IMG/VR virus record: IMGVR_UViG_3300037247_000311
Span: 1-61,863 of that record
Direction: 5' to 3' (one strand)
DNA from: a virus
Lineage: Duplodnaviria; Caudoviricetes
Length of the DNA: 61,863 nt
Shown here piece after piece: positions 1-37,491 of this stretch; the first letter of the stretch is position 1; every line of letters begins with the position of its first letter. The notes under the pieces are model-generated. The model had not been told where the DNA came from and ran no database searches. It saw nothing but the letters and a program-made list of their open reading frames with translations. The translations under genes and the position numbers were made by a program.

Positions 1-127
1 GCACGTGCATGGCCAAACCGTGCTAGCTCCGATTGCTGGCCAAGAAGGTTGGCCGTCTCCTCAAAAGGAGCAGCTTCCTCATCAGCACGTAGCGCCCTAT
101 CGAGCTGGCTTGTAAACCCTGGTGTCA
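1..127. repeat. 127-bp terminal direct repeat (copy 1); circular assembly overlap
   Basis: Bases 1-127 are identical to 61737-61863; 127 is a standard assembler k-mer length, and the repeat falls inside a reading frame that continues across the junction. Confidence 0.95.
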
Positions 128-257
128 GCCGTGGTGGTGGGGGAGGGGGTACAGGCGTAGGCGTAGGCTCATCTGGAGGGCGAATAATAGACTGTGTTGC
201 CCTGCGCCGTGGCCTAGGGAAGACCGTGCGCCCATCTGGAATAAAGCGGAAAGGCGT
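1..257 (-). CDS. N-terminal part of the internal virion protein annotated at 60095-61669 (spans the origin)
   Basis: The frame of 60095..61669 stays open through 61736 and wraps to a TAA at 273-275. An AGGAG SD (266-270) lies 8 nt before an in-frame ACG at 257. The segment encodes a Pro-rich N-terminus. Confidence 0.6.
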
Positions 258-268
258 AGTAGTATCTC

Positions 269-427
269 CTACTTACGTGAACGTCTAGGCTTAAACCCGT
301 GGTCAATCGCCCTCAGAAGACGTGCCTGGCTCTTTGCCTTCTTTTTCGTAGTAGATTTAGCTTTTGTGCCACCTGGCGTACTGACGCGATAACGGCCCTC
401 ATCCGTCTTACGGATTTTAACGGGCAC
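269..427 (-). CDS. small basic protein, 52 aa (MPVKIRKTDEGRYRVSTPGGTKAKSTTKKKAKSQARLLRAIDHGFKPRRSRK)
   Basis: Translated by hand (below the ORF-track cutoff). The GTG start overlaps the stop of the upstream ORF and the gene fills the gap in the operon. Lys/Arg-rich. Confidence 0.75.
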   Translation of the reverse strand: MPVKIRKTDEGRYRVSTPGGTKAKSTTKKKAKSQARLLRAIDHGFKPRRSRK

Positions 428-735
428 TAGGAGACCTTTGCAACGCCCGTCTCACCTGCGCCAACTCCGGCCTCCTGGGGGGAGAACTTGAAACGGGATG
501 CCTTGTGCTCAACCTCTAGCCACTTCTCAATAGTATCCTTCCCGTGGCCCATGACTCCCATGAGTTCCATCTCTGCATCTACTTCTCGCATGAACTCAAC
601 AGCGTCCGCCCGCGTCGGAAGAGATTTCCCAACAGGCGAATTATCACGGGTGTCAAAGACCTGATACCGTGATCCAACCTTGATAACATCAAAGATGTAG
701 TGGTAGTGTACTCCCTCTGGCTGAGCATGTGCCAT
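427..735 (-). CDS. hypothetical protein
   Basis: ORF tightly packed in the minus-strand late operon. Confidence 0.7.
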   Translation of the reverse strand: MAHAQPEGVHYHYIFDVIKVGSRYQVFDTRDNSPVGKSLPTRADAVEFMREVDAEMELMGVMGHGKDTIEKWLEVEHKASRFKFSPQEAGVGAGETGVAKVS

Positions 736-736
736 A

Positions 737-1435
737 TTAAAATCCTTCTGGTCTAGCGGCCTGTTGCTGGAAGATTACGTCCTCAGGGCGCATCCCAAAG
801 CTCTGGAGCAGCCCTAAGAGCGACTGCACAATCACGGGACTCGTATGTCGAAAGAAGGCAGGATCGATCTGATTCAGCAGAGGCGCAACACCCCGCTGAA
901 GTTGCCCCAGGCCCGCGATGCTAATAAATGGGTTGTTTTGCACAGCACCGGCAAGAAGCCGTGCAGCTTCGGCAGTTTGGCCAGTACCCACAGCACGACT
1001 TGGATCAGGGCGGATATACTCTAGAGCCCTTGCATACCCCAAACGGTCGTTCCGTCGTAGGTCCTCTAGTTGGAGAAGCGCAGGATCAACACCAGCCGAA
1101 CGCTGAGCAGCCTCCCCCAAGCTCAATGCATTAATCGTAGGGATATTTGTCGTCCCACCAGTCTGTCCAAAGAAACGGCCTACGGTAAAGGGGTTGTCGC
1201 TCGAAATCAGAAACGGGCCATCAGGGCCAAAAGCTGCCGTTGCCGCAATAGGAGTAGCGGGAGTAGGCAATTGCGGAGGAATAGTTGCCAGCGTACGTGC
1301 GCCACCTGGTCTACTAGGCGCCTGCAAACTAGGTGTCTGAGGCAGCTTCCGAGTAAACGGGGATGTGTCAAAGAGCGCAGTACGTGTCTGCGGGTTCTTG
1401 CTCCGTTGTCGTGCAAGAGATGTCGTATGGGGCAT
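737..1435 (-). CDS. putative internal virion protein
   Basis: Ala/Gly/Pro/Gln-rich ORF coupled to its neighbours, downstream of the portal gene. Confidence 0.5.
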   Translation of the reverse strand: MPHTTSLARQRSKNPQTRTALFDTSPFTRKLPQTPSLQAPSRPGGARTLATIPPQLPTPATPIAATAAFGPDGPFLISSDNPFTVGRFFGQTGGTTNIPTINALSLGEAAQRSAGVDPALLQLEDLRRNDRLGYARALEYIRPDPSRAVGTGQTAEAARLLAGAVQNNPFISIAGLGQLQRGVAPLLNQIDPAFFRHTSPVIVQSLLGLLQSFGMRPEDVIFQQQAARPEGF

Positions 1436-2004
1436 TAGCGGCGGGCCTCTTGTCTCGCCAGTTGGTCTAGCGCAGGCGACACAGATACCGTATACGGGCC
1501 AAACCGGCCCTGCACAGTCTGGAGCCCACCACGCCTACTCTCATCAAGACTAATAATTCCAGTCTCATTACCTCTCCCCTGTCCTGATGGCAGCCTCACC
1601 CTTGCCCACGGCCTTCCATTCCGACGGAACACGCCTATCACCTTGGCCTGCGGTGGTCCTGTAGCAAACATGCCTGCGTTCTGTAAAAGTTGGCTTGCTA
1701 GATCACCAAAGGCAGCCGGTGCTGGACGCCCCGCCCCGCCAGTACGAGCAAGATCAGTCGCAGGAGCGAGCACGCCCCCACCACCTGCCTGCCCTCCAGC
1801 TCCAAAAGCTGTTAACGCGGGAACAATACTAAAAGGATCACGTTGAACATCTAAGAGCTGCTGAAGCAGGCTCCGCCCAAACTCCTGCCGTGAAAGCTCA
1901 CTCTGAAGGGCGAGACGCTGCGCGTCTAGGTCCAACTGTGCTAAGTTGAACCCGCCAGCAATATTAAACGAACCGCTACCGCCGAAGAGATTAGATAGGG
2001 ACAT
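1435..2004 (-). CDS. putative internal virion protein
   Basis: Gly/Ala/Gln-rich with a short coiled-coil segment; coupled to neighbours. Confidence 0.5.
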   Translation of the reverse strand: MSLSNLFGGSGSFNIAGGFNLAQLDLDAQRLALQSELSRQEFGRSLLQQLLDVQRDPFSIVPALTAFGAGGQAGGGGVLAPATDLARTGGAGRPAPAAFGDLASQLLQNAGMFATGPPQAKVIGVFRRNGRPWARVRLPSGQGRGNETGIISLDESRRGGLQTVQGRFGPYTVSVSPALDQLARQEARR

Positions 2005-2005
2005 A

Positions 2006-2695
2006 CTATACTCTTCCTATACCTGCAAGCATTTGAGACACTTGCGGTGACACTGGGCCAGGCTGTGCAAGAGCGCCCACGTCAAACTCCTGCTCAACAA
2101 CAGGAGCACCCCCAAATGGTAGACCAAAGGTCTGTGACACTTGTGCAAGAGCCCCTGTAGGCTCCATTCCAGGAAAGAACTCAGTCCCCTTCGGGGTCAG
2201 AAACCCAGCAAGTTGGCGGGCCTGATCAACCGCACTAAGACGCCGCTGATCTGCAATATCTTGGGCAGTGTTAAAGGCTGTTAGGGAGTTAAGGGCGCGG
2301 TCGAGAGTTATCCGACGGGTCGCAAGAGCCTCTTGTGCGAGGTTTGTCCGCTTCTGTTCAGCCAGTTCTGCTTGGAGAAGCGCGAGTTCACCAGGGCGAA
2401 ATTGGGGCGATCCGCCACCTGGGACTCCTTGGCCAAATGTAGGGTCGCGTATATACTGATAGTTACAAGGGCCTCCAGGGTACTCCTGGTTAGGGATTCC
2501 AACAAGCCCAGCAGCACTATAGTCTAGGGGACACTCGCTACCACCGTCTGCTGGATCATCCCCAGTTCCTCTTAGAGCGTCAAGAAACTCCGCCGCAAGA
2601 CCTCTAGGCTGCTCTCCAGAGACCCCCTGGAAGTCAAACGGGCTCCCTCCTTGCAGAAGGGTGTCAGGCGTAATTCCTGTAGGTGGATGAGACAC
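2006..2695 (-). CDS. putative internal virion protein
   Basis: GTG start with AGGAG SD; Gly/Pro-rich plus a coiled-coil segment. Confidence 0.5.
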   Translation of the reverse strand: MSHPPTGITPDTLLQGGSPFDFQGVSGEQPRGLAAEFLDALRGTGDDPADGGSECPLDYSAAGLVGIPNQEYPGGPCNYQYIRDPTFGQGVPGGGSPQFRPGELALLQAELAEQKRTNLAQEALATRRITLDRALNSLTAFNTAQDIADQRRLSAVDQARQLAGFLTPKGTEFFPGMEPTGALAQVSQTFGLPFGGAPVVEQEFDVGALAQPGPVSPQVSQMLAGIGRV

Positions 2696-2752
2696 AGCAA
2701 CTCCTAATTGCCGCGCCTCCAGAGACTTTTCGTCTCACGGCCTACTATCTAT

Positions 2753-2782
2753 AGTTTAACACAATTAGGGGGTCCGGGTCAA
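2753..2782 (-). promoter_or_regulatory. sigma70-type promoter
   Basis: TTGACC-N18-TAAACT with extended -10 TG, upstream of 2006..2695. Confidence 0.55.
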
Positions 2783-3058
2783 CTGCCTTGGAATCCCCAG
2801 TCTCTCGGCCTCATGAAGAAGCTCAGCCTGTCCGCCCAAGGTCGGCTGCGATTCCAGCATTTCCTGAAACTCCTCAGTACTAAGTTTCTCAATGTCAGGC
2901 TTAGTCACAGAAGTCTCAAGTGGCCCGTAGCCGTCTGCATAGATAGACGCAACCATGCGGTCAATAAGCTGAGTTACCCCATCAAGGACATTGATGAACC
3001 GATCGTTGATCCACGCACTCGTCATTAGCTCGTTGAATCTCCCGACTTTAGATGGCAT
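2765..3058 (-). CDS. hypothetical protein
   Basis: Overlaps the portal stop codon; same operon. Confidence 0.65.
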   Translation of the reverse strand: MPSKVGRFNELMTSAWINDRFINVLDGVTQLIDRMVASIYADGYGPLETSVTKPDIEKLSTEEFQEMLESQPTLGGQAELLHEAERLGIPRQLTRTP

Positions 3059-5138
3059 TTGGCAGCGCCTCTACTGGCTCAGGTGATCGTGGGCCAAAAT
3101 CACTCGTACCTTGCACGACCGGCATCCCAACTCCCGGCAGCCTCACCTGATCCTGCGGTTGTCCTGGCGCACCACCTCCGCCTGCTAAGCCCGTTGCGGG
3201 ATCAATTCCCAAATCAAGTGGCAGCTGATCCCCGCCTTCGGCCGGTACCCCCGCCGGTTCGGGATTAATCATTTCCTGAATGCGCCGCTTGCCCTGTGCA
3301 ATAGCTAGTTCAGCAAGGACAGGTTCAAGGGACTCCATTATACGAATAAGCAGCTTACCCTCGAAGACTCTTGCTATCTCCTCTTCGGGGTCTTCCGTAT
3401 CTGACTGCTCTACGACAGTCTGGTAGCTTGCCGTGCCTTGTTCCATCCGCTGCGCCAGTGCTTGCCACTTGGCGTACTTTGTAATAGGCGTCTCAGCGCC
3501 AAGAGCTACAATTATATCAAAGGGTAAATCTGCCATCTCAGGCGTAATCTTAGCAGGATCGGCGACACGAACCTTATCACCCTTGCGTGCATCATCCGGA
3601 AGCGTTGGGATATAAACCGGAATCCCGTGCTTCCGCACAGCGTAGATAATGCCCTTCATGATCGCCGCGAGAGCCTCAGCCCGCACGTTCTGGTACGGCA
3701 CCATCTGGATGTCAGCCTGTGCAACCTGAATCGCTAACCTGTGCCCAGATGTATCCGACGAAGCCTCACCTACCTGAGACTCTGCCATCTGGTAGAGTTC
3801 GGTCTCTGAGAGTAGCCGCGCTTCAGCCTTGTCTATATCCGCGTTAGGGGTCTCAACACGCTTGATCTCACCTGCAATGGTGGGAATAGCACGGTTCTCC
3901 TGGCCTACCTCTGGAGTCTTCTCCTCGTCCGAAGGCAGCATAGGCTGATCCGAAGACACCTTCACGTACGCAGGCGCGAGAGCTTCCTCAATAGACGCAG
4001 ACAGCCGTGCGGTCATCAACACGTTTAGCGCCTGTGCCGTAGACAGAACGCCCTCAATTACTGGCTGATACTTATAGGCTGGATCATCGTCCGTCGTCAC
4101 ATCGCCAGGCACAAGAGCATAGCCCGTAGTATATGGGCCAAATGGATTCGGAAACGAGAAGACAACACCCCGACCGCCTCGGCGCCTAGACCCCTTACGG
4201 AGCTTCGGGTGCTCGATCATAATAAAGATATTGTCTCGTGTACGAACTTCAGTGTAGGACACCGAGGCGCTCACATTACTTGTGGTAAAGAATCGGGAAG
4301 ACCCCGTATCCTGCGCTGGATAGGTACGTGATCCGACAGCCTCGGTTGTTTCTTCGTCTATAAATATCTTACCTGTGTCTTTGTCAAAGCGGAGCCCATA
4401 ATCACTAAAGGCTTCTAAGAGCGGGTTAAGCGCCTTCTCCCCCGTTTCGACCATGATAGCAATACCATCATCGTCCTCATGCCAGTAGCAGTTCAGCGGG
4501 TCTACGGCAATCAACCTAAACGGGGGGAACTCAGCACGGAGCGCGTCATCGGTGACTGCCTTAAAGGCATCCCCATCATTTTCGGTCTTAGATCGAGCAG
4601 CACGAAAAGCAGCACGGGCCTTGTTCCGCTCAGTGGCCCCCTCAATTGCATCATCCTCATCTGCGGCAACAATGTCGTCCAGGTTAAAGTCCTTTAGAGA
4701 CTGCCCGTGATCTGGCAGGAAGTCTACACGGATAATCCCTAGACCGTCTCCCTGCTGGTGCTGTGTGAGCTTCCAGTCGAAGGTAGGATTCCCACGGCTC
4801 ATCCACTTACCAAGGGCCTTGACACCGTTTTCTAGCTCCTGAGCTAACGTCTGTAGACCACCCCCAGAACGAAGGAGGATCACCTCATATTGAGGCTTGT
4901 TAGCAATAAGGCGCTTGGTACGCTTGTGAGCCTCCTGGTTAGGCAACTCGGTCTGATAGACCATAAGGGCCGTATCTTGTACCCTAGAGTTCAGAGGAAG
5001 TGACTCAAGAGCTGGCCCCATTCGACGGTAGCGTATTTCCCGCCGGTTGTCCCAGAGCGTATCACGAGTAATAAAGTCCTTCTTTATCTCGTCTCTGAGT
5101 TTCCAGAGTTCCGTATCGGAGGCGTTCTTTAGAGTCAT
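3048..5138 (-). CDS. portal (head-tail connector) protein
   Basis: 696-aa, largely helical protein directly downstream of TerL, with a low-complexity Gly/Pro/Gln C-terminal tail typical of podovirus portals. Assigned by synteny and size. Confidence 0.7.
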   Translation of the reverse strand: MTLKNASDTELWKLRDEIKKDFITRDTLWDNRREIRYRRMGPALESLPLNSRVQDTALMVYQTELPNQEAHKRTKRLIANKPQYEVILLRSGGGLQTLAQELENGVKALGKWMSRGNPTFDWKLTQHQQGDGLGIIRVDFLPDHGQSLKDFNLDDIVAADEDDAIEGATERNKARAAFRAARSKTENDGDAFKAVTDDALRAEFPPFRLIAVDPLNCYWHEDDDGIAIMVETGEKALNPLLEAFSDYGLRFDKDTGKIFIDEETTEAVGSRTYPAQDTGSSRFFTTSNVSASVSYTEVRTRDNIFIMIEHPKLRKGSRRRGGRGVVFSFPNPFGPYTTGYALVPGDVTTDDDPAYKYQPVIEGVLSTAQALNVLMTARLSASIEEALAPAYVKVSSDQPMLPSDEEKTPEVGQENRAIPTIAGEIKRVETPNADIDKAEARLLSETELYQMAESQVGEASSDTSGHRLAIQVAQADIQMVPYQNVRAEALAAIMKGIIYAVRKHGIPVYIPTLPDDARKGDKVRVADPAKITPEMADLPFDIIVALGAETPITKYAKWQALAQRMEQGTASYQTVVEQSDTEDPEEEIARVFEGKLLIRIMESLEPVLAELAIAQGKRRIQEMINPEPAGVPAEGGDQLPLDLGIDPATGLAGGGGAPGQPQDQVRLPGVGMPVVQGTSDFGPRSPEPVEALPNAI

Positions 5139-5354: not shown

Positions 5355-5377
5355 CCCTCCACTCTAAGTATAACATA

Positions 5378-7567
5378 TTAGCGCGTAACGATGCCTCCCG
5401 GCCCAATAGCGTACTCTCTCTGGATTCCCCGCCGCCCTGCACCAGAAAACGCGTGTCTCAGCCCATAGCGAGCAGCGTCAGGGGCATGGTCTTCGCCATC
5501 TGAGTCTACGTCCTCTACGTTGTGCTCGTCTACAATGAGCAGCGGAAGCGTCCGCACAAGGTTCACGCAGGTATCAAAAACAAAGAACCTAGGCGGCGAA
5601 CTAACTCTTCCAGTGGGGTCTTCCGTCCAGTCCACCATCTCCCGCATGAGTCGCCAGCCCGGAACACGCTCGTTGTTCCCCTTGAGCACAGGCGCTATGC
5701 CTGCAAAGCCCCTTTTCCAGTCATCGGCCATAGACTCGATCTGTTCTCCCTTTACGTTCACCTTGCTAAAGAGGGACGGATCAAGAACCACCGCACGAAG
5801 AGTCTCAGAGGAGTCTGCTACTACTTGCTTTGCACGATAAATCTGTTCGCTCAGTTTCACGCCTTCCCCATACTGCTCACGGTAGAAGTATGCTACCTGA
5901 GTACCAGGGGGCCTCGCAAACCACAAGGTTGCATGGGGAGCACCATACCCATAGTCATTACAAAGGAACCTATCCCAATCAGGAGGAATATCAAAAGGCT
6001 TCACTACATGAAGCTCCGGACGCCAGCGTACGAAGAACTGGCCCATAAAGACTTCCCAGTCTCCCATTGCAGCGCGATATTCTTCATAGGGAAGTGCTCT
6101 CAGCCGCTCCGTATAGTTTGGGTCAGCCTTCATGAGAGTGTCGTTATCTGTAACCTTAGCAGGGATATATTGACGAGTCATACCGCCTTCAGCTACGGGG
6201 CTTCGCCAGACTTCTCCTGGTTTAGCAGGATCGTACCAACGGGCTTTCACCCAGCCATGTCCACGTCCAAGAGGAGTTGCCCCCGCACGTATACGAGGTC
6301 CCGGCCACCAGGGCTTAGTAGAACGACAACGGCTGGTGAGATACGTGTAGATGAACTGCGTAAAGTGCGTTAGCTCATCTAGGAGGATTGCGTCGAACTC
6401 GGCTGTATCATATGTATTCTGAGACGATAGACCCGATGCAACATAGGTATCACTACTAGACGAAAGGAGTGCCACAGGTCGATCAACGATCTCATCTACG
6501 GCGACAACAACGACTGACTGTGCACGGCTTTGAGGCACAGGAAGAGATTTTCCTAATAGTTTTGCCCACTTATCAAGTAGTCTGGGCGGGCGCGTCTCTA
6601 TAAGAAATCGAATAATCTGATCCATACCAAACAGGCGTACTTGATATGTATTACGGTGAGGAAGACAAGGATCAACTACAGAAATCCTATAACCCCTCTT
6701 AGTAAGCATACTCTTAACTGCACTAAGAAACGAGTTATCCTTCTGTGAGAAAGTTAGCATTGCAGAGCCGCCCGATATTGACAAACACCCGTCTGCATCA
6801 AATGCAGCAGCTAAGAATCCACTCTCATAATCCCGCCCCAAGTCTGTAGGGGGCGCAATCTGCCTAATTGCAACCTTCTCACCTTGCTTTATCCGCTTAT
6901 ATATCTCATCAGTTCGGAGCCAGTGGGGGCCATATCCCCTATCAACAAGCCATTTGTGTTCTGGATTAGCATCAATTGGCTGTCTATCATCAAAGTGTAG
7001 CCGATGTGTTGGCATAGTAACAGTACTATTAGATGTAACTACTGCACGGCTTAATCTACGTCGGCCCCCACGCTTTAGCACATTCCTGTCAAACCCTAGG
7101 ATTTCATCCCCCGCTCTTAGTTTGTCCGCTCTGACCCAACGCAAGTCTGCCGTAAGTATTGGAGTGCCTATTCCCACACACCGGGCGTCTTCGTCTTTCT
7201 CACAAAAGCGGAGGTGGAGAATCGACCCATTCTTAAAGATCAGGTCGTGGGACTTAGATGAGTAATGTGCGATGGAGGCCGGTACTTCCTGCTGGATAGA
7301 GATAATGTGAGTCTCTTCCAGTTGCCGGTAGGACTGACGGAAGAGAACCACCCTCGCACCAGGGTACGTCATACAGTATCGTACGGCCCAAGCACGAAGC
7401 GCGTAGGACTTGCCTCCACCCTTAGCTCCACCATAGAGTACTTCTTCTGCTTCACTCTCCATAAAATTAGATTGGGGGCCAACATGTGTTTGGTAAAGCA
7501 CGCGTTTCTTCTCACCTCCACCACGGCGGATAGCGTGCTGCTGAGCTGAGAGCCTAGCTCTGGGCAT
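5378..7567 (-). CDS. terL: terminase large subunit, intein-containing
   Basis: Walker A YGGAKGGGKS, Walker B ILLDELTHF, coupling motif GATP, RNase H-like nuclease motifs CNDYGYGAP and DHAPDAARY. Confidence 0.95.
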   Translation of the reverse strand: MPRARLSAQQHAIRRGGGEKKRVLYQTHVGPQSNFMESEAEEVLYGGAKGGGKSYALRAWAVRYCMTYPGARVVLFRQSYRQLEETHIISIQQEVPASIAHYSSKSHDLIFKNGSILHLRFCEKDEDARCVGIGTPILTADLRWVRADKLRAGDEILGFDRNVLKRGGRRRLSRAVVTSNSTVTMPTHRLHFDDRQPIDANPEHKWLVDRGYGPHWLRTDEIYKRIKQGEKVAIRQIAPPTDLGRDYESGFLAAAFDADGCLSISGGSAMLTFSQKDNSFLSAVKSMLTKRGYRISVVDPCLPHRNTYQVRLFGMDQIIRFLIETRPPRLLDKWAKLLGKSLPVPQSRAQSVVVVAVDEIVDRPVALLSSSSDTYVASGLSSQNTYDTAEFDAILLDELTHFTQFIYTYLTSRCRSTKPWWPGPRIRAGATPLGRGHGWVKARWYDPAKPGEVWRSPVAEGGMTRQYIPAKVTDNDTLMKADPNYTERLRALPYEEYRAAMGDWEVFMGQFFVRWRPELHVVKPFDIPPDWDRFLCNDYGYGAPHATLWFARPPGTQVAYFYREQYGEGVKLSEQIYRAKQVVADSSETLRAVVLDPSLFSKVNVKGEQIESMADDWKRGFAGIAPVLKGNNERVPGWRLMREMVDWTEDPTGRVSSPPRFFVFDTCVNLVRTLPLLIVDEHNVEDVDSDGEDHAPDAARYGLRHAFSGAGRRGIQREYAIGPGGIVTR
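6416..7180 (-). mobile_element. intein (255 aa) with LAGLIDADG homing endonuclease in TerL
   Basis: Starts CVGIGTPILTAD (block A), contains ANPEHKWL (block B) and FLAAAFDADG (LAGLIDADG), and ends YVASGLSSQN followed by a +1 Thr. Removal restores a contiguous ATPase domain (DEDAR|TYDTAEFDAILLDE). Confidence 0.92.
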
Positions 7568-8003
7568 CTACTTCTTGATACTCTTTGGCTTCTTCTGCTT
7601 CTTCGGATGAGGTAGTCCGTGTTTCGGCATCCATAACTCCATCTACAAGCTGCGGTTTATCGGGTACGCCCGGCAACCAGGGTACGATCTCCAGTGGTCC
7701 GCCCCCCTCCCCTGTCAATTCCTGTCGTTGTGGAACCTTTCCGAGCCCATGCTCAATAAGGAACTCCAATGCCTGACGATCTGGTATCTGCTGATAGATA
7801 CGCGACTCCCCGCTCCGACCGTCCGTCTTCTCCACCCACACGCCTCTGGCAAGCTCTGCAAGCGTACTAATAAACTCCGGAAGATGCTTAATGATCCAGC
7901 TTTCCGTACGGTCAGCAATCTTACGGCGCCGTTTAGGGCTAAGGGCTGCACCCCCTTTATCGAGCATCAACCACTTCCTGCTCAAAATCCTCCACCACGC
8001 CAA
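7554..8003 (-). CDS. terS: terminase small subunit (start uncertain, possibly 7967)
   Basis: Immediately upstream of and overlapping TerL; C-terminal PDRQALEFLIEHGLGKVPQRQELTGEGGGPLEI is typical of TerS. Confidence 0.75.
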   Translation of the reverse strand: MAWWRILSRKWLMLDKGGAALSPKRRRKIADRTESWIIKHLPEFISTLAELARGVWVEKTDGRSGESRIYQQIPDRQALEFLIEHGLGKVPQRQELTGEGGGPLEIVPWLPGVPDKPQLVDGVMDAETRTTSSEEAEEAKEYQEVDAQS

Positions 8004-8148
8004 ACTGCACCATCTCCTGCCAAATCATAGAATGCTTTTCCCTAGAAGATGCACGTGGCCAACGGTTCTCCGAATGTCTAATCATCCCCTCCAGCCGCCT
8101 CTGCTCCTGATCCAACCGCCTCTGTAGTAAGACTAAACGAGACAACAC
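7957..8148 (-). CDS. hypothetical protein (short coiled coil)
   Basis: First ORF after the promoter at 8250-8279; GAGGT SD. Confidence 0.5.
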   Translation of the reverse strand: MLSRLVLLQRRLDQEQRRLEGMIRHSENRWPRASSREKHSMIWQEMVQFGVVEDFEQEVVDAR

Positions 8149-8249
8149 TAGACCTCATAAGAAAGGGTGCTGGGGATTCCGCCCAGGAGGCAAGAGCAAA
8201 ACCCCCAGACTCACAGGCATCGCGCCTATGAGCATGCTTCACCTCTGTT

Positions 8250-14344: not shown

Positions 14345-15385
14345 ATGACTAAACGCACATTTAATTATGGTCGGGTGGTAGCCCGTAGGAGCCTTGTGAG
14401 GTGCCTAGAAAGCTATCAGGCTAGCGTCGGGCAGGCACAAGAAGACCTAGATGCCTATGATCTTCCACGCCCTGAGGGGCCAACGCTTGATGAACTACAG
14501 GAACTTCCAGGTAGATGGCCGGAGCTAATGGGTATAGCCATCCGCAACAGGAAGATTCATGCCAAGTTTATTCCTGTATATTTTAGGAATAGCCGTGGTG
14601 CTAGGGCAATGAGTAGTGATCTACACGTAGTTCTTGACAGGGATGGGGAGCCTCGCCTAAATGGAGCACGTTCTCCCGGCATACATCCACACACACGTGG
14701 GTCTAATATATGTCGAGGAAATGTAACTAAACTTTTCTCCACTATGGTTGCTTCGAACCAAGTGATAGCATCGCTTGATCTCATTCGTCGGTGGCGTCTG
14801 GGCTATAAGTTGTCAGGTGTATATAGGGTAGGCTGGGAGGTGTGTGGGTGGCAATGGCTACATGATGTGCGGCAGGGTGTGGTTAAAACAGCCTGGGACA
14901 ATGGGCTAGTCCAAGATAACCGATCGGGTGTGGTACTCCCCTTAGAGGACGCTCTTGAAGGGAAAGTAGCTGACTATATTCATATGGGCCTACGCCAAGC
15001 GTGGGTACGCCCATCAGAGGTTAGAGACCCTGATGCTGCACCGCGTGAGTGTATTGGATGTCAGGGGCGTACGCTATTGTGCTCGTGTCATGAAGACCGT
15101 ACTTGTGTTGGCTGTCAACAGCGTCAAACTTGGTGCCTCTGTCAGGACTCAAGGTTTATTATAAACCGTGAGTTACGTTCTGGGGAGATACATGCAACTG
15201 GAGTTGTGCCCTCTGGTGAATATGATGGGCCATGTAGAGAATGTGGTGGCCCCGGCCCAAACATAGTTTACACAAGGACTGTGGGTGGTAGGGACAATTC
15301 TTCCTGCTACTATTGTGCCTCGTGTACAACATATGGTGCTGAGGCACTTAAGCTACGTGCAGAGATCGCAGGAGACGCTAAATGA
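14345..15385 (+). CDS. prokaryotic E2-like ubiquitin-conjugating protein with Cys-rich C-terminal extension
   Basis: HPH-x6-C motif (IHPHTRGSNICRGN, Cys123) matches the UBC/Prok-E2 active-site pattern HPN/H...IC; first gene of an operon with JAB, E1 and Ubl. Confidence 0.7.
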   Translation: MTKRTFNYGRVVARRSLVRCLESYQASVGQAQEDLDAYDLPRPEGPTLDELQELPGRWPELMGIAIRNRKIHAKFIPVYFRNSRGARAMSSDLHVVLDRDGEPRLNGARSPGIHPHTRGSNICRGNVTKLFSTMVASNQVIASLDLIRRWRLGYKLSGVYRVGWEVCGWQWLHDVRQGVVKTAWDNGLVQDNRSGVVLPLEDALEGKVADYIHMGLRQAWVRPSEVRDPDAAPRECIGCQGRTLLCSCHEDRTCVGCQQRQTWCLCQDSRFIINRELRSGEIHATGVVPSGEYDGPCRECGGPGPNIVYTRTVGGRDNSSCYYCASCTTYGAEALKLRAEIAGDAK

Positions 15386-16065
15386 TCTTACTCACAAAAG
15401 AAGCTCGTCAAATGATGGCCTTAGCCGTACAGAAGGCACCAGCACTAGAGGTATCTGGCTTTGGGAGAGCAGATATACAGGGGCACATGGTTGTCGTCCG
15501 CAGTATTTTCATTCCGCCACAGGAAGTTGATGCTGCACATACGGCTGTTACGGGCGATAACCTTCGTATAACTCTTGAAGCATTCATCCGTGCGGGCACA
15601 ACGCTTGCACAATGGCCTGTATGGTGGCATTCGCACTGTAGTATGGGCGTTATGCCGTCACCACAGGACTATACAACACTTGAGCTGTTAGCTGAAGAGT
15701 TACCAGACTTAGGCTGGTTTGCGGGTATTGTTACCAACACAAAAGGGGAGTACCACGGCTGGATAGAGATAACGAGACCACTACCGTTGTCTGCCGAAGT
15801 AGACGTAGTACATGATCTAGAACAAGTACCTAAGAAGCTACATACAAGGGTAGACGAGATGATGAAACAGGTTAAGCCAACGGTGTATGCTCCCGCTCGA
15901 AGGGGCATACCGAATGTTACACATCATGATATGTGTACTTGTACCACATGTATGGCTAATGCACAAGCTGACATTGCGGAGGGCCAAAACGAGGAGGAGC
16001 TTATACGAGAGATGCGAGCATCGGGTATGTTCTTAGGAACACGAGCGGGAGAGGATGAAGTATGA
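15382..16065 (+). CDS. JAB/MPN+ (JAMM) metallo-isopeptidase
   Basis: Complete JAMM motif E23...H83-S-H85-x7-S93-x2-D96 (EVSGFG...WWHSHCSMGVMPSPQD); ATGA overlaps on both sides. Confidence 0.92.
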   Translation: MILLTKEARQMMALAVQKAPALEVSGFGRADIQGHMVVVRSIFIPPQEVDAAHTAVTGDNLRITLEAFIRAGTTLAQWPVWWHSHCSMGVMPSPQDYTTLELLAEELPDLGWFAGIVTNTKGEYHGWIEITRPLPLSAEVDVVHDLEQVPKKLHTRVDEMMKQVKPTVYAPARRGIPNVTHHDMCTCTTCMANAQADIAEGQNEEELIREMRASGMFLGTRAGEDEV

Positions 16066-16733
16066 TTGACGAAGGCACACGAGCACTACACTCGGAATCG
16101 AGGTTCCTCCGGCAACACCAGATCATCCATCCTCAGATGGCAGGCATGGAGGTGATTATAGCAGGCGCAGGGATGATAGGAGGATGGACAGCGCATGCGT
16201 TGAGCCGGGCAGTGAGGAGAGTCCACCTCTTTGACCCAGGGGATGTGGAGTTGGTGAATACGGGGAATCAGCCATACTCACCACATCATGTAACTATGTC
16301 TAAGGTAGATGCATTTGACCTACCCAACATTACGCCCCATGTTGAGGCGTTTCCTCGTAGGCGGGCATGGCCTGTTATGGGACAGGAAGTCTTTATCTCT
16401 GCCGTAGACTCCATGTCTGGGCGTAGGGCCAATGCTGAGTGGAGCAAGCATGCGAAACTGCCACTCTTCCTTGATGGCCGCATACGTGGAGAGTTGGCCG
16501 TCCTAGCTGTTGTTACAGACCAGCGGTATGATGAGTACCTAGAGGCGCTCCCCTCCGATGATGATGTTGAAGACGTACCATGTGGTATGGAAGGAAGCGC
16601 GTATGTGGGGATGCACCTTGCCGCCCGCATTGCTGCTACCATCAATGCTTGGTGCAAAGGAACACAGATACCAAGTATGTATGTCTATCATGTGGGGCTT
16701 GACCAGTTAGTGACGAAGAAGTTTCAAGACTAA
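16062..16733 (+). CDS. E1-like ThiF/MoeB-family ubiquitin-like activating enzyme
   Basis: RFLRQ, GAGMIG nucleotide-binding loop, FDPGDVELVNTGNQ, SKVDA, SAVDS, FLDGR, and a candidate catalytic Cys174 (DVPCG). Confidence 0.92.
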   Translation: MIDEGTRALHSESRFLRQHQIIHPQMAGMEVIIAGAGMIGGWTAHALSRAVRRVHLFDPGDVELVNTGNQPYSPHHVTMSKVDAFDLPNITPHVEAFPRRRAWPVMGQEVFISAVDSMSGRRANAEWSKHAKLPLFLDGRIRGELAVLAVVTDQRYDEYLEALPSDDDVEDVPCGMEGSAYVGMHLAARIAATINAWCKGTQIPSMYVYHVGLDQLVTKKFQD

Positions 16734-16825
16734 GGTACTCCACCCTTCGGGGTGTGTATCAAAGCTGCGGAGGGTCGTGATCACGACCAAGAATCTCCCG
16801 AAGAAGATAGTACAGGAGGCAGAGA

Positions 16826-17077
16826 GTGAGTGGAGGAACGGTAACTGTCGGTACACCATCGAAGCAGGAGACCTATGGCATCAACGGTACTATGGAGACT
16901 GTTGGTGATGCACTTGGTAAGTTCTTCGATGGTGGACAAGACCCATTTAAGGACCAGTCCGTCAGTCTGAATAGTAGAGAGTTGACCACGGAAGATACAG
17001 ATCAGCCGCTCCGTAATAGTGACATTATCCTTGTCATGAGCAAGAGGCTCGCTAGTGGGGGCGTAAAGGGCGCATAG
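16826..17077 (+). CDS. ubiquitin-like (beta-grasp, ThiS/MoaD-like) protein
   Basis: 83 aa, AGGAGG SD; pattern TVGDAL...VSLNSREL...QPLRNSDIILVM fits a beta-grasp fold; C-terminus ASGG-VKGA. Confidence 0.85.
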   Translation: MSGGTVTVGTPSKQETYGINGTMETVGDALGKFFDGGQDPFKDQSVSLNSRELTTEDTDQPLRNSDIILVMSKRLASGGVKGA

Positions 17078-17710: not shown

Positions 17711-17961
17711 TGGAGATCATTCGTGATACACAAGGGAGATTGTCTAGTGTCCATTTCGGGAGTGCTCACCGCAACCTGTGGATTGGCAGAACCGGATTAG
17801 GCTTTGGTGGCCCGGTTTGTGGATACAACGCTCATTGGTACGACCTTCGCCATCCATGGGGGCGCTACAGCATAGGAGAGTTTCGCTTTGTTTTCTTTTG
17901 GAAGCAAATCTGGCGCGGGCTGCGGGAGTTCATTGTCGCTCCAGAGCATGTAGATGACTGA
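17707..17961 (+). CDS. hypothetical protein
   Basis: Coupled ORF. Confidence 0.6.
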   Translation: MMEIIRDTQGRLSSVHFGSAHRNLWIGRTGLGFGGPVCGYNAHWYDLRHPWGRYSIGEFRFVFFWKQIWRGLREFIVAPEHVDD

Positions 17962-18361
17962 GGGCGAGCACTACAACGACCGTTACATCCGTTACCACTC
18001 AGATATATACATGCCTGAGCATATCGTTGTTGCTGCATTAGGGTTTCTCCCTCCAGGTAGAATGCAGCTCCCCATGAGCAACCATTACGAGGGGCTGCGT
18101 GATGCTCGGCGGCTACCTCCGAGCCTCTCCATGCCGGACGACTTTGACATAGTAGATGTTACTATCATTCGTGACACGCTGGCCCTCTTTCGCGTGTGCA
18201 TACGTTTCTCGTGGCCAGGAACGGACATGCTTGATTTGATTATGGTACTAGAGGGCGACCACGAGGTCGTGAGCGCGTATTGGAATGCGCGTGATGATCG
18301 GCATGGTACGCTTGATCCGACTATGTATGTAAAGAATCCAGAGGAGTTTGATGACAAGTAA
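17954..18361 (+). CDS. hypothetical protein, possibly RelE/DUF4258-like RNase fold
   Basis: His-led helix followed by a beta-meander (RVCIRF...DLIMVL...VVSAYWN). Confidence 0.4.
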   Translation: MTEGEHYNDRYIRYHSDIYMPEHIVVAALGFLPPGRMQLPMSNHYEGLRDARRLPPSLSMPDDFDIVDVTIIRDTLALFRVCIRFSWPGTDMLDLIMVLEGDHEVVSAYWNARDDRHGTLDPTMYVKNPEEFDDK

Positions 18362-19472: not shown

Positions 19473-19676
19473 ATGACAACGGATTGCTCTAGGTTTTCAG
19501 ATCAGGGAGAGTGCTGCGACTACTGTCACAGGGAGGGGCGCATATATAAGTCTGCTAGAGTATCTCCCGATATTGTGCGTATCTGTTATTGTCTTGCAGC
19601 AGATATGGGTCAGGGGTTTGTGCTTCACTACGAGAGAAAGTTTAGGAGGAAGCGTGAGTTGTCTGGCCCCGCCTGA
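19473..19676 (+). CDS. small Cys-rich protein
   Basis: CCDYCH...CYC. Confidence 0.5.
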   Translation: MTTDCSRFSDQGECCDYCHREGRIYKSARVSPDIVRICYCLAADMGQGFVLHYERKFRRKRELSGPA

Positions 19677-20220
19677 TCTCCTTAACTGTACGCAATGTCC
19701 TCTCCATGCAACACGGAAGGCCGTTGTACCAGGACACGGAGACATACATGCTCGTATCATGCTAGTAGCAGAAGCGCCAGGAAAAGTAGAAGAGGAACAC
19801 CGCGAACCGCAACCGCTTGTTGGGCCAGCAGGTAGACGGCTTAATATGATCCTGGCAAAGGTACCACTGGATAGGGCAGAACTCTGGCTCTCAAACGTAG
19901 CGAAATGTAGGCCCCCTTCCAATGATCTCCGTCCGTATCCTAACACTGTGATCCTCTGCCCACAGCTATGGTTAGACGGTGAGATACAGATAGTGCAGCC
20001 CGCAGTTATTTTAGCCCTAGGAGCTACAGCAGGGGCACGTTGGTTCCCCGGCTATCAAGCAAGTGAGATGGCCGATATGCAACGTGTGCTCCCAGACGGT
20101 AGGGTTGTATGTGGGGCCTTCCACCCTTCATATGGATTGAGAAGAGGGGGTGATTGGAATAGTATTGATGAGAGTATCCGTAAGTCGTTACTGAGAGCTA
20201 AGGAGTTAGCAAATGCTTGA
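19654..20220 (+). CDS. uracil-DNA glycosylase, family 4 (Fe-S)
   Basis: CTQCPL, VAEAPG, LVGPAG, NVAKCRPPSN, C, ALGATA and HPSY motifs; GTG at 19654 follows AGGAGG. Confidence 0.92.
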   Translation: MSCLAPPDLLNCTQCPLHATRKAVVPGHGDIHARIMLVAEAPGKVEEEHREPQPLVGPAGRRLNMILAKVPLDRAELWLSNVAKCRPPSNDLRPYPNTVILCPQLWLDGEIQIVQPAVILALGATAGARWFPGYQASEMADMQRVLPDGRVVCGAFHPSYGLRRGGDWNSIDESIRKSLLRAKELANA

Positions 20221-29205: not shown

Positions 29206-30139
29206 CGATTATACTATCGAATATGATTTCGAGTACACGGAGTACTCGAACCAGCGCGTCCGTGATAAGTATGGATCGTCTGGGCCGCGCAATGCGACTC
29301 ATGCATCTGACCTGTTTTTCTGTCTCAGGAAGGCGTGGCTCAAGCAGGCTATCTTACGAGGCGACATCGAGGCTACAGTTGATGGAGATGAAATCTCCGA
29401 TGCTACACTAGATGTCGGTGATGATACGATCCTCACCTGGTCAGGTGGGCTGATGTTTGAGGACCTCGTATCAGAAGGGGAACGCCAGCCTGCCTCAACA
29501 TACTGCTGGACATGCGGGGCAGTAGGCCGGATGCCCAATAAGGCTCCTGGTGAGCCTGAACAGGCACACTGTCCCGTATGTCGAAACCGCTGGTTGGTAT
29601 TCACCCCTGATTACATTGCCAATGGTATCGTACATGAAGCAAAGGAGACACGTAAGAGCCGTCGTCAGGGGCCTGCAAACGCTCCCTGGTGGATGGATCA
29701 GCTACGTACGTACTTCGCGTTTGCCAAGCAGGCAGGGTGGACGACGGCGCCGTATGCAAGGCTCGTTGTAAAGTGGCTTATGGGGGATTACGGGCGCAAG
29801 AAGAAGGGCCTGCGCCCACTTCCCCCATCTGCTGCACTAGACGCCTTTCGTATCGTGTTCGATGAGGATCGGCTATCAGAGTGGTTAGTAGAACTACGGC
29901 GAAGGTCAGCGATTACGGAGGGTAGTAAACTGCCGCCCCTCAATGGGATGGGCAGTGGTAGTGAGCAAGTGCCGGCCTACGACTGGGAATGCAGCTCCTG
30001 CCTGGTAGGTAAGGCTGCTGGTTGTGAGATGTGGAAATGGGACGCTGATGATAAGGAGATCACTGGAGTAGAATTGGAGGTAGTAGATGGCCCACGCGAG
30101 ACTGATCAAGACATGTCAGCTATGCCAGAAGACGATTAG
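29192..30139 (+). CDS. PD-(D/E)XK Cas4/RecB-like exonuclease with inserted Zn ribbon
   Basis: HASDLFFCLRK, TPD...EAK, QLRTY and C-terminal CSSC...C; internal CWTC...CPVC. Confidence 0.8.
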   Translation: MDWTDDYTIEYDFEYTEYSNQRVRDKYGSSGPRNATHASDLFFCLRKAWLKQAILRGDIEATVDGDEISDATLDVGDDTILTWSGGLMFEDLVSEGERQPASTYCWTCGAVGRMPNKAPGEPEQAHCPVCRNRWLVFTPDYIANGIVHEAKETRKSRRQGPANAPWWMDQLRTYFAFAKQAGWTTAPYARLVVKWLMGDYGRKKKGLRPLPPSAALDAFRIVFDEDRLSEWLVELRRRSAITEGSKLPPLNGMGSGSEQVPAYDWECSSCLVGKAAGCEMWKWDADDKEITGVELEVVDGPRETDQDMSAMPEDD

Positions 30140-30314
30140 GGTTGACATTGTGCAGAATGGGTGTGAGAACAGCGACTGTAGTGACACACAGCGCGAGACG
30201 TTTGCGTATTGTCCAATCTGCCATAAGACTACTGACCAACTAGCCAGTCTGGTTCATATAGGTACGACTATACACCAGATTGATCAGCCGCTAGGAGGCC
30301 CTAATGTCAGTTGA
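30087..30314 (+). CDS. small Zn-finger protein
   Basis: GGAGGT SD; CQLC...C...C...CPIC. Confidence 0.6.
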   Translation: MAHARLIKTCQLCQKTIRVDIVQNGCENSDCSDTQRETFAYCPICHKTTDQLASLVHIGTTIHQIDQPLGGPNVS

Positions 30315-36388: not shown

Positions 36389-36817
36389 GTGAACGATTGG
36401 ACGCATTGTCCTCATTGTGGGGTGCCTGATGGCAAGTCTGCATGTGCGGCGTGTGACTGTCTAGTAGAGCAAGGTATGCGTGAAGGGGCGCCGGTTGGCC
36501 GTAAGGACGACTCCTCCAAACTTCGCTACGATCTTATCCCGCCCTATGCTCTTGAAGCTCTTGCACATGTCTACACGATTGGCGCAGCAAGGTACGGCGA
36601 CGGTAATTATCTCAAAGGTATGGATTGGAGTCGTGTAGGGGGTGCTCTCATGCGGCACTATGAAGCGTGGCGCAAAGGGGAGAGTCTTGATAAGGACGAT
36701 GGGCAACATCATCTTGCATCCGTTGCGTGGTGCGCGTTTACTCTAATGGTCTACGAGGATCAGTGTATTGGTAGTGATGATCGCGGCCTAGTTATTGAGG
36801 GGGCTACGGATGGATAA
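36389..36817 (+). CDS. dATP/dGTP diphosphohydrolase-domain protein (DUF5664-like)
   Basis: GRKDDSSKLRYDLIP...GAARYG..NY.KG...ALMRH...GE..D...G.HHLA. Confidence 0.85.
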   Translation: MNDWTHCPHCGVPDGKSACAACDCLVEQGMREGAPVGRKDDSSKLRYDLIPPYALEALAHVYTIGAARYGDGNYLKGMDWSRVGGALMRHYEAWRKGESLDKDDGQHHLASVAWCAFTLMVYEDQCIGSDDRGLVIEGATDG

Positions 36818-37226
36818 AACATACACGTATATCGCTGGTCCCTACCGTGCATCCAATGGTGGACACGACTATCAGTCATACTACGATATTGACCAGCACA
36901 TCAACGAGGCCCGTATGTGGGCAACGAGGTTAGCAAACGAGGGCATCCCGTTCTTCTGTCCACATCTTAACTCAACCCACATGGAGGTTATTGCCCCAAA
37001 TGTTCCACCGGAGTATTGGTATAAGCTCGACATGCTAATCCTTGAACATGCGTCGGCGCTCCTGCTGATACCTGGGTGGAGAGACTCTAAAGGGGCACTA
37101 GCGGAGAGGGATCGTGCTAGAGAGTTAGGCATTACCTGTTACACGACTAGTATATTTGCTATGCTTGTTCAGGACTGGGGAAGTGAGTACGTTGTGAAGG
37201 AGCTGGCAGGTGTCTCCCTACATTGA
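36810..37226 (+). CDS. DUF4406/DUF1937-like NDT-superfamily protein
   Basis: YIAGPY...PH...D...PGWRDSKGA..E...A.ELG. Confidence 0.8.
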   Translation: MDKTYTYIAGPYRASNGGHDYQSYYDIDQHINEARMWATRLANEGIPFFCPHLNSTHMEVIAPNVPPEYWYKLDMLILEHASALLLIPGWRDSKGALAERDRARELGITCYTTSIFAMLVQDWGSEYVVKELAGVSLH

Positions 37227-37491
37227 CCAGAACGCCCGTGACCTTCTTGCGGCTGGCCGTCAGCCAGAGACTCTTGGTGAGCTGAACTATGCCATTACGC
37301 GGCTATGTCTAGGCTGGTTGGCTGACTATGGGGATAACTACGGTGCATATGCCGCTATAGTTGGTGTCCTCGAAACCGCTAAGCTGGAACTATACAGGCG
37401 TGTAGTTGTGCCCTATGAACAGGACAAATGTGAGATCAATGGCGACGTTTATCCGGTCCCAGAGTTTGATGAAGGAGATATAGATGAGTAA
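37210..37491 (+). CDS. conserved phage protein (DUF6899-like)
   Basis: PYI...GELNYAITRL...GVLETAKLELYRR...PYE..K...NGDVY. Confidence 0.7.
   Translation: MSPYIDQNARDLLAAGRQPETLGELNYAITRLCLGWLADYGDNYGAYAAIVGVLETAKLELYRRVVVPYEQDKCEINGDVYPVPEFDEGDIDE

Follow-up and report, generated by a model that had tools for sequence, protein, structure and literature searches.

A phage early-region cassette with a probable E1-E2-JAB-Ubl conjugation cascade

What does a phage do with the parts of a ubiquitin-like conjugation pathway? The question is raised by the virus record IMGVR_UViG_3300037247_000311 (IMG/VR; Duplodnaviria, Caudoviricetes), whose 61,863 bp form the window analyzed here. Four consecutive genes on its plus strand, at 14345-17077, encode in this order a protein resembling ubiquitin-conjugating enzymes (E2), a JAB/JAMM metalloprotease, a ThiF-type adenylyltransferase resembling ubiquitin-activating enzymes (E1) and a beta-grasp ubiquitin-like protein (Ubl). 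A first-pass annotation, made from the letters and translations only, had proposed these four identities, and independent computations bore out all of them. The cassette probably specifies a self-contained, phage-encoded cascade that conjugates the Ubl to proteins and is expressed together with early and replication genes. Prokaryotic operons of E1, E2, JAB and Ubl have so far been regarded as a part of bacterial immunity (Bil, type II CBASS and Bub); a virulent-type phage with its own complete cascade reverses this picture and would parallel the eukaryotic viruses that manipulate ubiquitin signaling.

The four open reading frames (ORFs) were found as annotated (Table 1), and the ATGA overlaps said to join the first three genes are present at both junctions, E2-JAB and JAB-E1. 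A GGAG-type ribosome-binding stretch lies upstream of each start. In the 92-nt gap that separates the Ubl start from the E1 stop lies a small hairpin, CACCC-TTCG-GGGTG, not followed by a T-run. By acting in RNA processing or stability, it might set the Ubl dosage apart from that of the three overlapping enzyme genes.

Scans with E1 and Ubl retrieved four viral relatives, distinct contigs of 38.7-63.4 kb, three of which were inspected (L005, L008 and L009; L004 was left out). The genes for the E2-like protein, JAB, E1 and Ubl occur in identical order in 3/3 of them, with identities to the window copies of 48-55% for E1 and 23-30% for the E2-like protein. Despite the latter value, the HPH...C...G residues of the E2-like protein are kept in all four cassette copies. 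The genes downstream, including one for a uracil-DNA glycosylase (UDG), are likewise common to the three contigs. Since the four-gene order recurs in every inspected contig and none of the family alignments shows variation at the motif residues, the association is more than a chance one. In L009, the E1 and Ubl genes are separated by an inserted ORF of 106 aa that is hydrophobic and membrane-like.

The E2-like protein had no match in Pfam (E <= 1), PADLOC, PHROG or NCBIfam, and a word-based protein search returned only the protein itself. A phmmer search of 1.84 billion cluster representatives gave 22 proteins, including the query, at E <= 0.001 (9 at <= 1e-10 and 3 at <= 1e-30). The presumptive active-site stretch reads I-H114-P-H116-TRGSNI-C123-R-G125, and H114, P115, H116, C123 and G125 (HPH-x6-C-x-G) are invariant in 22/22 family sequences; the HPH-x6-C123 motif on which the E2 assignment had been based is thus not only present, it is a constant of the family.

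An AlphaFold 2 model built on the 22-member alignment (mean predicted local distance difference test score, pLDDT, 83.8; predicted template-modeling score, pTM, 0.75) consists, in order, of a helix, a beta-meander, a loop with HPH and C123, and three helices, with C123 placed seven residues past the HPH motif and immediately before a helix. Comparison of this model with 48,161 representative chains by VIA-align yielded 34 chains at Z >= 5, and the first 43 matches listed are all E2, UEV or RWD folds by title. Pex4p was best (Z 7.4, root-mean-square deviation 3.5, 127 residues aligned), then UBE2S (7.1), UbcH10 (7.0) and Ubc13 (6.8); I215L of African swine fever virus (ASFV; 5.5) and Cap2 (4.3) were found further down. 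In a second comparison, with Foldseek's top 998 chains, 113 reached Z >= 5, and 50/50 of the matches listed are E2 enzymes (Z 6.4-7.5). The E2 chains were aligned over near-whole length (115-128 residues), and Ube2N matched from residue 1 to 152 of 152 to model residues 39-183 at Z 7.5. By the offset of that alignment, the HPN and Cys positions of Ube2N presumably differ from those of H114-P-H116 and C123 by no more than about 2 residues; the equivalence of C123 to the E2 catalytic Cys is drawn from aligned ranges, not from a residue-level alignment.

Other searches with gene 1 remained empty. Foldseek gave nothing at E <= 0.001 for the model, neither in the PDB (top rows UFC1, Ubc13 and UBE2L6, E 0.27-1.3) nor in BFVD (best, a crAss-like virus protein, E 0.056), and the family profile found nothing significant among PDB sequences, its best match (0.041) being to zinc-ribbon stretches. 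Support from Prok-E2 profiles, a search suggested in the first-pass annotation, was not obtained, as no Prok-E2 model of Pfam matched the window protein or any other of the 22 family members at E <= 0.1. Prok-E2_D is found on 11% of the members of one Atlas neighbor cluster (score 0.89), which is taken as a lead only. A UBC/E2 fold is accepted for gene 1 from its predicted structure, because the match list is uniform and spans entire chains, and because the E2 active-site loop is where the only residues invariant in the family lie.

The UBC core is followed by a Cys-rich C-terminal region with two patterns, C236xxC239-x6-C246xC248H249-x4-C254xxC257-x6-C264xC266 and C297xxC300 ... C321xxC324xxC327. 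The family keeps C236, C246 and C254 almost without exception, and the region was modeled as beta-hairpins (pLDDT 74-83). Judged by its Cys pattern, it is probably zinc-binding, and we propose that it is a target-recognition (E3-like) module. It is missing in the L005 copy (246 aa), other copies are up to 626 aa long, and an N-terminal domain of about 85 aa, carried by most homologues, is absent from the window protein. A constant UBC core with variable flanking domains would be as expected of target-recognition modules. Six distant homologues of 530-600 aa (P0006, P0010, P0015, P0017, P0018 and P0019) have a conserved C-terminal His-rich block, R-H-x-H-x-H-x-H ... H-x-H-x-H-E-H ... H ... H, which is invariant in 6/6 and constitutes a putative second, different metal-binding module on the same UBC core.

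The second gene encodes the JAMM residues E23, H83-S-H85, S93 and D96 (E ... HxH-x7-S-xx-D), all of them invariant in the four cassette copies. A profile of these copies matched Rpn11 (E 7.4e-4), PSMD14 and CSN5 in the PDB across the motif, which confirms the JAMM protease with an intact E/HSH/S/D motif that had been read from the translation. PADLOC JAB models matched at 1.9e-4 at best; the Prok-JAB model of Pfam matched as well, but under its cut-off (E 0.08; 13.3 vs 25 bits). The protease is presumed to trim the Ubl C-terminus and/or to remove conjugates.

For the third gene, Pfam ThiF was matched above the gathering cut-off (3.9e-8; 33.2 vs 28.1 bits) and phrog_15670 at 2.1e-11. The family profile found in the PDB TcdA (2.7e-12), UBA5 (5.7e-8), PaaA, MccB, Uba4, ThiF (6e-5) and Cap2 (3e-4). 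The NCBIfam ThiF equivalog scores are far under cut-off (32 vs 159 bits), and the PADLOC E1-E2 (CBASS-type) models match, weakly, the Rossmann stretch at residues ~25-85 only. The motifs G35-A-G37-M-I-G40, D58, D116, R121 and VP-C174-G were identified, and G35, G37, G40, D58, N66, Q70, K81, D116, R121, R140 and C174 are invariant in the family. The ATP-binding motifs of an E1/ThiF protein thus stand as first described; its "lone" Cys174 does not, as the protein has cysteines at 174 and 198, of which C174 is the only invariant one. C174 may be equivalent to the crossover-loop cysteines of ThiF and MoeB. The protein of 223 aa has a single adenylation domain and no rhodanese domain. Its N-terminal 25 aa are conserved, supporting the ATGA-coupled start over a shorter gene call.

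The Ubl of the window had no family match in Pfam, PADLOC, PHROG or NCBIfam, and its family profile found nothing significant among PDB sequences; Pfam ThiS, silent on the window copy, was nevertheless matched by 10/20 family members (best 1.7e-5). The AlphaFold 2 model is a beta-grasp (pLDDT 82.9). Foldseek of this model against the PDB gave three matches at E <= 0.001, each to a ubiquitin-like domain, and reached 1.2e-3 for ThiS; the probability to Ubl domains and ThiS was 1.00. By VIA, MoaD was the top match (Z 7.9), followed by Smt3 (7.7) and SAMP1 (7.5). The sequence, in which Cys does not occur, ends SKRLA76-S-G78-G79-V-K81-G82-A83. The tail block A-S-G-G-[VIL]-K-G is invariant in 20/20 members, and after G82 there is one residue (A, S or N) and then a variable stretch of 0-4 more. 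The fold and the G78-G79-V-K-G-A tail claimed for this protein were recovered, but the conservation extends to K81-G82, so that an end at G79 may be wrong. In the structural alignments, residue 79 is the last one aligned and faces the terminal residue of MoaD and of mature Smt3, which favors G79 as the reactive end; conservation through G82 and variation beyond it favor G82 as the mature end. The mature Ubl could therefore end at either residue.

The score of 0.84 for the complex predicted from two E1 chains and a single Ubl far exceeds that of the best of three controls (0.03) and passes a mark that is reached by 116/157 solved complexes and 2/215 mismatched pairs. Three runs share at least 95% of the contacts, with a partner pLDDT of at least 88. 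In the model, the contacts of Ubl residues 74-83 on E1 comprise residues 35 and 37-40 (P-loop), 114-118 and 121 (D116 region), 139-149 and 164-177, so that the Ubl tail lies inside the E1 adenylation site and is lined by the residues around C174. The result indicates a predicted likeness to the ThiF-ThiS and MoeB-MoaD binding mode, and supports binding rather than proving it.

The computed folds, motifs, synteny and E1:Ubl fit suggest a route of five steps, from which we infer the chemistry, the JAB processing, the E2/E3 hybrid and the target. JAB would trim the Ubl precursor to an exposed C-terminal Gly, G79 or G82. The ThiF-type E1 homodimer would then bind the Ubl with its tail threaded into the ATP site, as modeled, and adenylate it, as the family of the enzyme suggests. 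Invariant residues and fold would be consistent with a Ubl thioester on Cys174 of E1 and subsequently on Cys123 of the canonical-type UBC-fold E2. The E2 would attach the Ubl to lysines of a host or phage protein chosen by its variable N- and C-terminal domains, here the Cys-rich module, and would act as an E2/E3 hybrid. Finally, JAB may reverse the modification too. Host takeover, counter-defense and control of phage replication proteins are candidate purposes.

Several points weigh against a conjugating cascade. Among solved structures, TcdA is closest to the E1, with PaaA and MccB matching too; none of these three E1-like enzymes conjugates proteins. The position of the Arg in the N-R-Q stretch of TcdA is occupied by N, C or V in the E1 family. 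The E1 lacks a ubiquitin-fold or other obvious E2-docking domain. The fold matches of the E2-like protein are middling (Z <= 7.5; best Foldseek E 0.27), and Z values of this size may stem from a widespread arrangement; the third residue of its motif is His (HPH), not Asn (HPN). Solved ThiF-ThiS and MoeB-MoaD complexes exist, and the predicted E1:Ubl complex may owe something of its pass to memory of them. E1, JAB and Ubl trios without conjugation also occur in sulfur transfer, according to the accessible part of Iyer et al. 2006 (PMC1779556).

An alternative that we consider unlikely is activation without protein conjugation, in which the E1 would adenylate the Ubl C-terminus for other chemistry. 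This could be sulfur carriage, with a thiocarboxylate like that of ThiS, MoaD or CysO and trimming by JAB, or else an MccB/PaaA-type change to the tail; the UBC-like protein would serve as scaffold or adaptor. The single-domain E1 of ThiF/MoeB size with its TcdA, PaaA and MccB relatives fits such a role, as do the ThiS matches in half of the Ubl family and MoaD as the top structural match, and sets of JAB, E1 and ThiS/MoaD-like proteins are described in sulfur assimilation in the same part of that source (PMC1779556). However, such a role would leave unexplained why, in 22/22 sequences, the E2 catalytic position holds an invariant Cys preceded by an equally invariant HPH, and the E1 is without a rhodanese domain. 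Pfam was further scanned at E <= 0.001 with the 86 window ORFs of >= 60 aa, many of which are without any family. No gene for thiamine (thiazole; ThiG/H), molybdopterin/molybdenum cofactor (Moco; MoaE) or cysteine synthesis (CysM), rhodanese, or cysteine desulfurase/sulfurtransferase was found among them, although such partners could be host-encoded. The earlier statement that genes of this kind are missing therefore holds for the scanned ORFs.

Protein conjugation is the reading that we keep, and the setting of the cassette bears on its possible use. The window is a complete phage genome with direct terminal repeats (completeness estimate 100%); a marine sediment metagenome, the sole public run containing the stretch, may be its source, and no RNA run with the stretch was listed. 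The hallmark genes encode a large terminase, a major head protein, a tail-fiber-like protein, a family A DNA polymerase and a helicase, and an RNA ligase, an ERCC4 nuclease, an MT-A70 methyltransferase, an RNase H-like exonuclease, a lysozyme and a family-4 UDG are also encoded. GC skew and ORF orientation delimit three blocks, of which the first (1-12 kb) and the last, a structural one, run leftward and the middle one (12-38 kb) runs rightward. The cassette is located about 2 kb inside the rightward, plus-strand early/replication block, which starts at the GC-skew switch near 12 kb, and the early-region position given in the first-pass annotation is accordingly right. Promoter-like sites were not in excess (10 vs 9.0 in shuffles), and terminator-like sites were fewer than in shuffles.

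The early position would also suit counter-defense by interference, in which the cassette would mainly neutralize host Ubl immunity (Bil, type II CBASS/Cap2-Cap3 or Bub), with JAB stripping host conjugates or the phage E1, E2 and Ubl competing with or mis-charging host components, and no modification specific to the phage would be made. The bacterial E1/E2/JAB/Ubl operons are anti-phage systems, as stated in the accessible parts of PMC11601596 and 10.1101/2023.09.04.556158, and the phage E1 and JAB weakly match the PADLOC models of CBASS-type E1-E2 and JAB. For such a purpose, however, a deconjugating protease alone would suffice; that diverged phages have retained an E2, an E1 and the cognate Ubl, whose tail is invariant and whose binding by the E1 is predicted, argues for a working cascade of the phage's own. 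Interference as the main function is therefore regarded as improbable.

Very unlikely, in our estimate, is a phage-carried exclusion system that tags structural proteins of superinfecting competitor phages in the manner of Bil. The set of components (Ubl, E2, JAB and E1) is shared with Bil, but the genome is virulent-looking, with no integrase among the scanned ORFs, and the cassette stands among replication genes in the window and in 3/3 inspected relatives, as do the JAB-ThiF cassettes of crAss-like and Flavobacterium phages described below. This constant position suggests a role in the phage's own cycle.

The distribution of the cassette is narrow so far. Two pattern scans (one with a Ubl pattern, one with E1 patterns) of 185,579 prokaryotic species genomes, one genome per species, found no relatives, although diverged copies could be missed. 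DNA and protein searches with the cassette DNA and the E2-like protein found none in 50,697 phage records, and neither did locus scans of viral contigs and metagenome contigs with the E2-like protein or with its distant subgroup. Among the distant E2 homologues, 10/10 looked up belong to singleton or near-singleton metagenome clusters of 1-3 members. As far as its sequence has been seen to date, the cassette appears confined to a small phage clade and metagenome fragments.

Distant JAB-ThiF cassettes were nevertheless found in cultured phages. A tblastn search with the E1 gave 31 phage records, 29 of them Flavobacterium FpV4-type phages (2e-10), with crAss-like phages at 4e-8; the ThiF proteins of both belong to phrog_15670, as does the window E1. 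A JAB-containing gene lies directly upstream of the ThiF gene in these phages, and its product is longer than that of the window (about 415 vs 227 aa). The gene upstream of this JAB gene codes for a product of about 420 aa, present in 74/50,697 phage records (crAss001, DAC15, DAC17, Kehishuvirus and Kolpuevirus among them), with H-S-H ... C-x-G invariant in four aligned members. Further upstream is a protein whose first ~90 aa end K-x-[IV]-[KR]-S-G-[AG], and to this domain a charged, low-complexity C-terminal extension of 120-200 aa is fused. If the ~90-aa domain is a Ubl, the extension must be cleaved off or be itself the cargo. Cassettes of this kind include crAss001 gp79-gp76 and those of DAC15, cr111_1 and Flavobacterium FpV4-like phages. 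Their proteins fall into PHROG families 15310, 15560, 21448/16107 and 15670, all of unknown function.

Between the two kinds of cassette, homology was recovered for the E1 but not for the putative E2 and Ubl. Alignment by hhalign of the E2 family with the ~420-aa crAss-type family gave a probability of 0.3%, with only the HxH...CxG stretch aligned, and that of the Ubl family with the ~90-aa domain family gave 0.45%. Pfam and PDB searches with the two crAss-type families were empty, and none of the E2-family (0/23) or Ubl (0/3) members scanned matched the PHROG families of the distant cassettes. The layout is suggestive, and the flanking genes are candidates for E2 and Ubl. A UDG gene lies within 0-3 kb of the cassette in the window phage and its relatives and of the crAss-like/FpV4 JAB-ThiF cassettes (Table 1), a proximity that may simply reflect a shared replication module.

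Tentatively, and with more doubt than confidence, the cassette can be seen as one face of a widespread, unrecognized class of phage-borne Ubl conjugation modules in unrelated lineages. Diverged versions would then be found in replication modules, including those of Crassvirales (crAss001 gp79-gp76 and DAC15) and Flavobacterium Fipvunavirus, usually near a family-4 UDG, and a canonical-type E2 with interchangeable zinc-finger or N-terminal domains would, as an E2/E3 hybrid, tag host or phage replication or defense proteins early in infection. If this is true, phages use ubiquitin-style signaling offensively and are perhaps a vehicle for spreading such enzymes. The cassette is amenable to testing, with four small proteins and with a distant JAB-ThiF cassette in cultured Bacteroides and Flavobacterium phages.

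Table 1. Positions of the cassette, its parts and other features, numbered within the sequence named in the first column. L001, L002, L010 and L011 are from crAss-like and FpV4 phages, and L009 is one of the inspected related contigs.
Sequence	Feature	Positions	Strand	Remarks
Window	E2-like protein	14345-15385	+	346 aa; long N-terminal helix, UBC-fold core, Cys-rich C-terminal region
Window	UBC/E2-fold core, residues ~40-185	14462-14899	+	Predicted structure; putative catalytic Cys123
Window	Cys-rich C-terminal region of E2-like protein	15050-15325	+	Cys pattern
Window	JAB/JAMM (MPN+) metalloprotease	15382-16065	+	227 aa; motif and profile match
Window	E1-like adenylyltransferase, ThiF/MoeB size	16062-16733	+	223 aa; Pfam ThiF
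Window	Hairpin between E1 and Ubl genes	16741-16754	+	
Window	Ubiquitin-like beta-grasp protein (Ubl)	16826-17077	+	83 aa, GTG start; predicted structure
Window	phrog_24108 protein	17954-18361	+	135 aa
Window	Family-4 UDG	19573-20220	+	
L002	UDG	5367-6044		
L010	UDG	7926-8230		
L001	UDG	1-588		
L002	Protein with ~90-aa domain	824-1459		Two genes upstream of JAB
L010	Protein with ~90-aa domain	2714-3391		Two genes upstream of JAB
L011	Protein with ~90-aa domain	2688-3428		Two genes upstream of JAB
L001	Protein with ~90-aa domain	607-1476		Two genes upstream of JAB
L009	Membrane-like ORF	6701-7021	+	106 aa
Window	Large terminase	5381-7567	-	729 aa
Window	Cys-containing ORF	30087-30311	+	75 aa
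Window	Three nucleotide-metabolism-like genes	36389-37488	+	

Other genes of the window were observed alongside. The protein encoded downstream of the cassette that matches phrog_24108 (function unknown; 1.1e-5) is found in the same place in 3/3 inspected relatives. The 75-aa ORF has the pattern CxxC ... C ... C ... CxxCH and matches Pellino_RING just at cut-off (22.8 vs 22.6 bits; E 1e-4) as well as CEP104_ZnF; by this pattern it could be simply a zinc ribbon, and it gives no basis for claiming a separate RING-like partner of the cascade. In the large terminase, Terminase_6N was matched at residues 45-133 and a LAGLIDADG-like domain at 246-322, around which the PHROG terminase matches are split; an intein or homing-endonuclease insertion may be present there. 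The three adjoining nucleotide-metabolism-like genes encode a PF18909 protein (1.2e-28), a DUF4406/DUF1937 protein and a DUF6899 protein (7.8e-21). PF18909 is the N-terminal domain of dATP/dGTP diphosphohydrolase, an enzyme type that goes along with base substitution in phage genomes; the scanned ORFs included no PurZ-like gene.

A full-text literature search, in which subscription journals are poorly covered and supplements are excluded, found no description of a phage with E1, E2, JAB and Ubl together. Within that coverage it agrees with the first-pass annotation, to whose author no characterized phage-borne system of this layout was known. Asgard archaeal viruses are stated to encode E1-like proteins that might harness host systems (preprint 10.1101/2021.07.29.454249, in the part available), and the accessible part of a 2026 gut-virome preprint mentions in passing a phage protein family structurally matching UBA5 (10.64898/2026.03.05.709809). 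The five phage-genome terms looked for are absent from the text of the Bil preprint 10.1101/2023.09.26.559546.

Among the known systems, the cassette is functionally like Bil, Bub, type II CBASS and PRTRC and is a member of none of them. With Bil it shares four separate genes for Ubl, E2, JAB/JAMM peptidase and E1, an expected Cys chemistry, and a JAB that would handle the pro-Ubl or conjugates. Unlike Bil, it is phage-borne, its Ubl is a single 83-aa beta-grasp of the ThiS/MoaD type, and its E2, from an undescribed family, carries a Cys-rich module; neither this E2 nor the Ubl of the window matches a PADLOC, Pfam or PHROG model. The E1 of Bil has an inactive and an active adenylation domain in tandem and a mobile catalytic domain, and its Ubl is ISG15-like, as described in the accessible part of PMC11601596. 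Membership in Bil was rejected on the 223-aa E1 with one adenylation domain and the single beta-grasp of the Ubl.

Type II CBASS likewise has an E1 adenylation domain, a UBC-like E2 and a JAB in one operon, and Cap2 was among the matches of both the E1 profile (3e-4) and the E2 model (Z 4.3). Cap2, however, is an E1-E2 fusion that conjugates the CD-NTase itself, whereas the phage has a free Ubl and separate E1 and E2 genes with JAB between them, and its E2 aligns better to canonical eukaryotic E2s, and over the full length of these (Z 7.0-7.5). With E1 and E2 unfused, no CD-NTase among the 86 ORFs and no effector, this assignment was rejected as well. The E2 also bears on the origin of the ubiquitin machinery, as its model covers the whole of canonical eukaryotic E2s, their C-terminal part included, and it is accompanied by a minimal, ThiF-sized E1.

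For PRTRC, membership was rejected on the absence of any PRTRC model of NCBIfam among the matches of the four proteins (E <= 1), a library that we take to include the PRTRC-specific models, and of ParB among the scanned ORFs. Bub resembles the cassette as a divergent prokaryotic cascade of E1, E2, Ubl and a peptidase. In the accessible part of PMC11601596, Bub is described as oxyester-based, with Tyr on E1, Ser on E2 and no catalytic cysteines. The invariant Cys174 of E1 and Cys123 of E2, and the lack of a match to DUF6527, the protease of Bub, among the scanned window ORFs, led to the rejection of this assignment.

The pairs and sets of sulfur metabolism (ThiF-ThiS, MoeB-MoaD and CysO-Mec) are similar in E1 size and single domain, in a beta-grasp with a Gly-Gly tail and in the predicted placement of this tail in the active site, and JAB trimming is part of some sulfur-carrier systems, according to the available part of PMC1779556. 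The cassette differs from them in its conserved UBC-fold protein with a catalytic-type Cys and in the absence of sulfur-transfer and cofactor genes; a role in thiamine or Moco synthesis was rejected, with no partner genes among the 86 ORFs. The same part of that source describes the tail assembly proteins I (a Ubl with a C-terminal Gly) and K (JAB with NlpC/P60) of lambda and T1 as an adjoining phage pair (PMC1779556). Like the cassette, this pair joins a phage-encoded beta-grasp Ubl ending in Gly to a JAB, but it is without E1 or E2 and belongs to a tail morphogenesis module, whereas here a full cascade is encoded among early/replication genes.

A virus-encoded UBC fold is also known from eukaryotic large DNA viruses, and I215L of ASFV was matched by the E2 model at the Z of 5.5 given above. 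Such viruses, having their own E2, rely on host ubiquitin and host E1; in contrast, the present phage brings its own E1, Ubl and protease.

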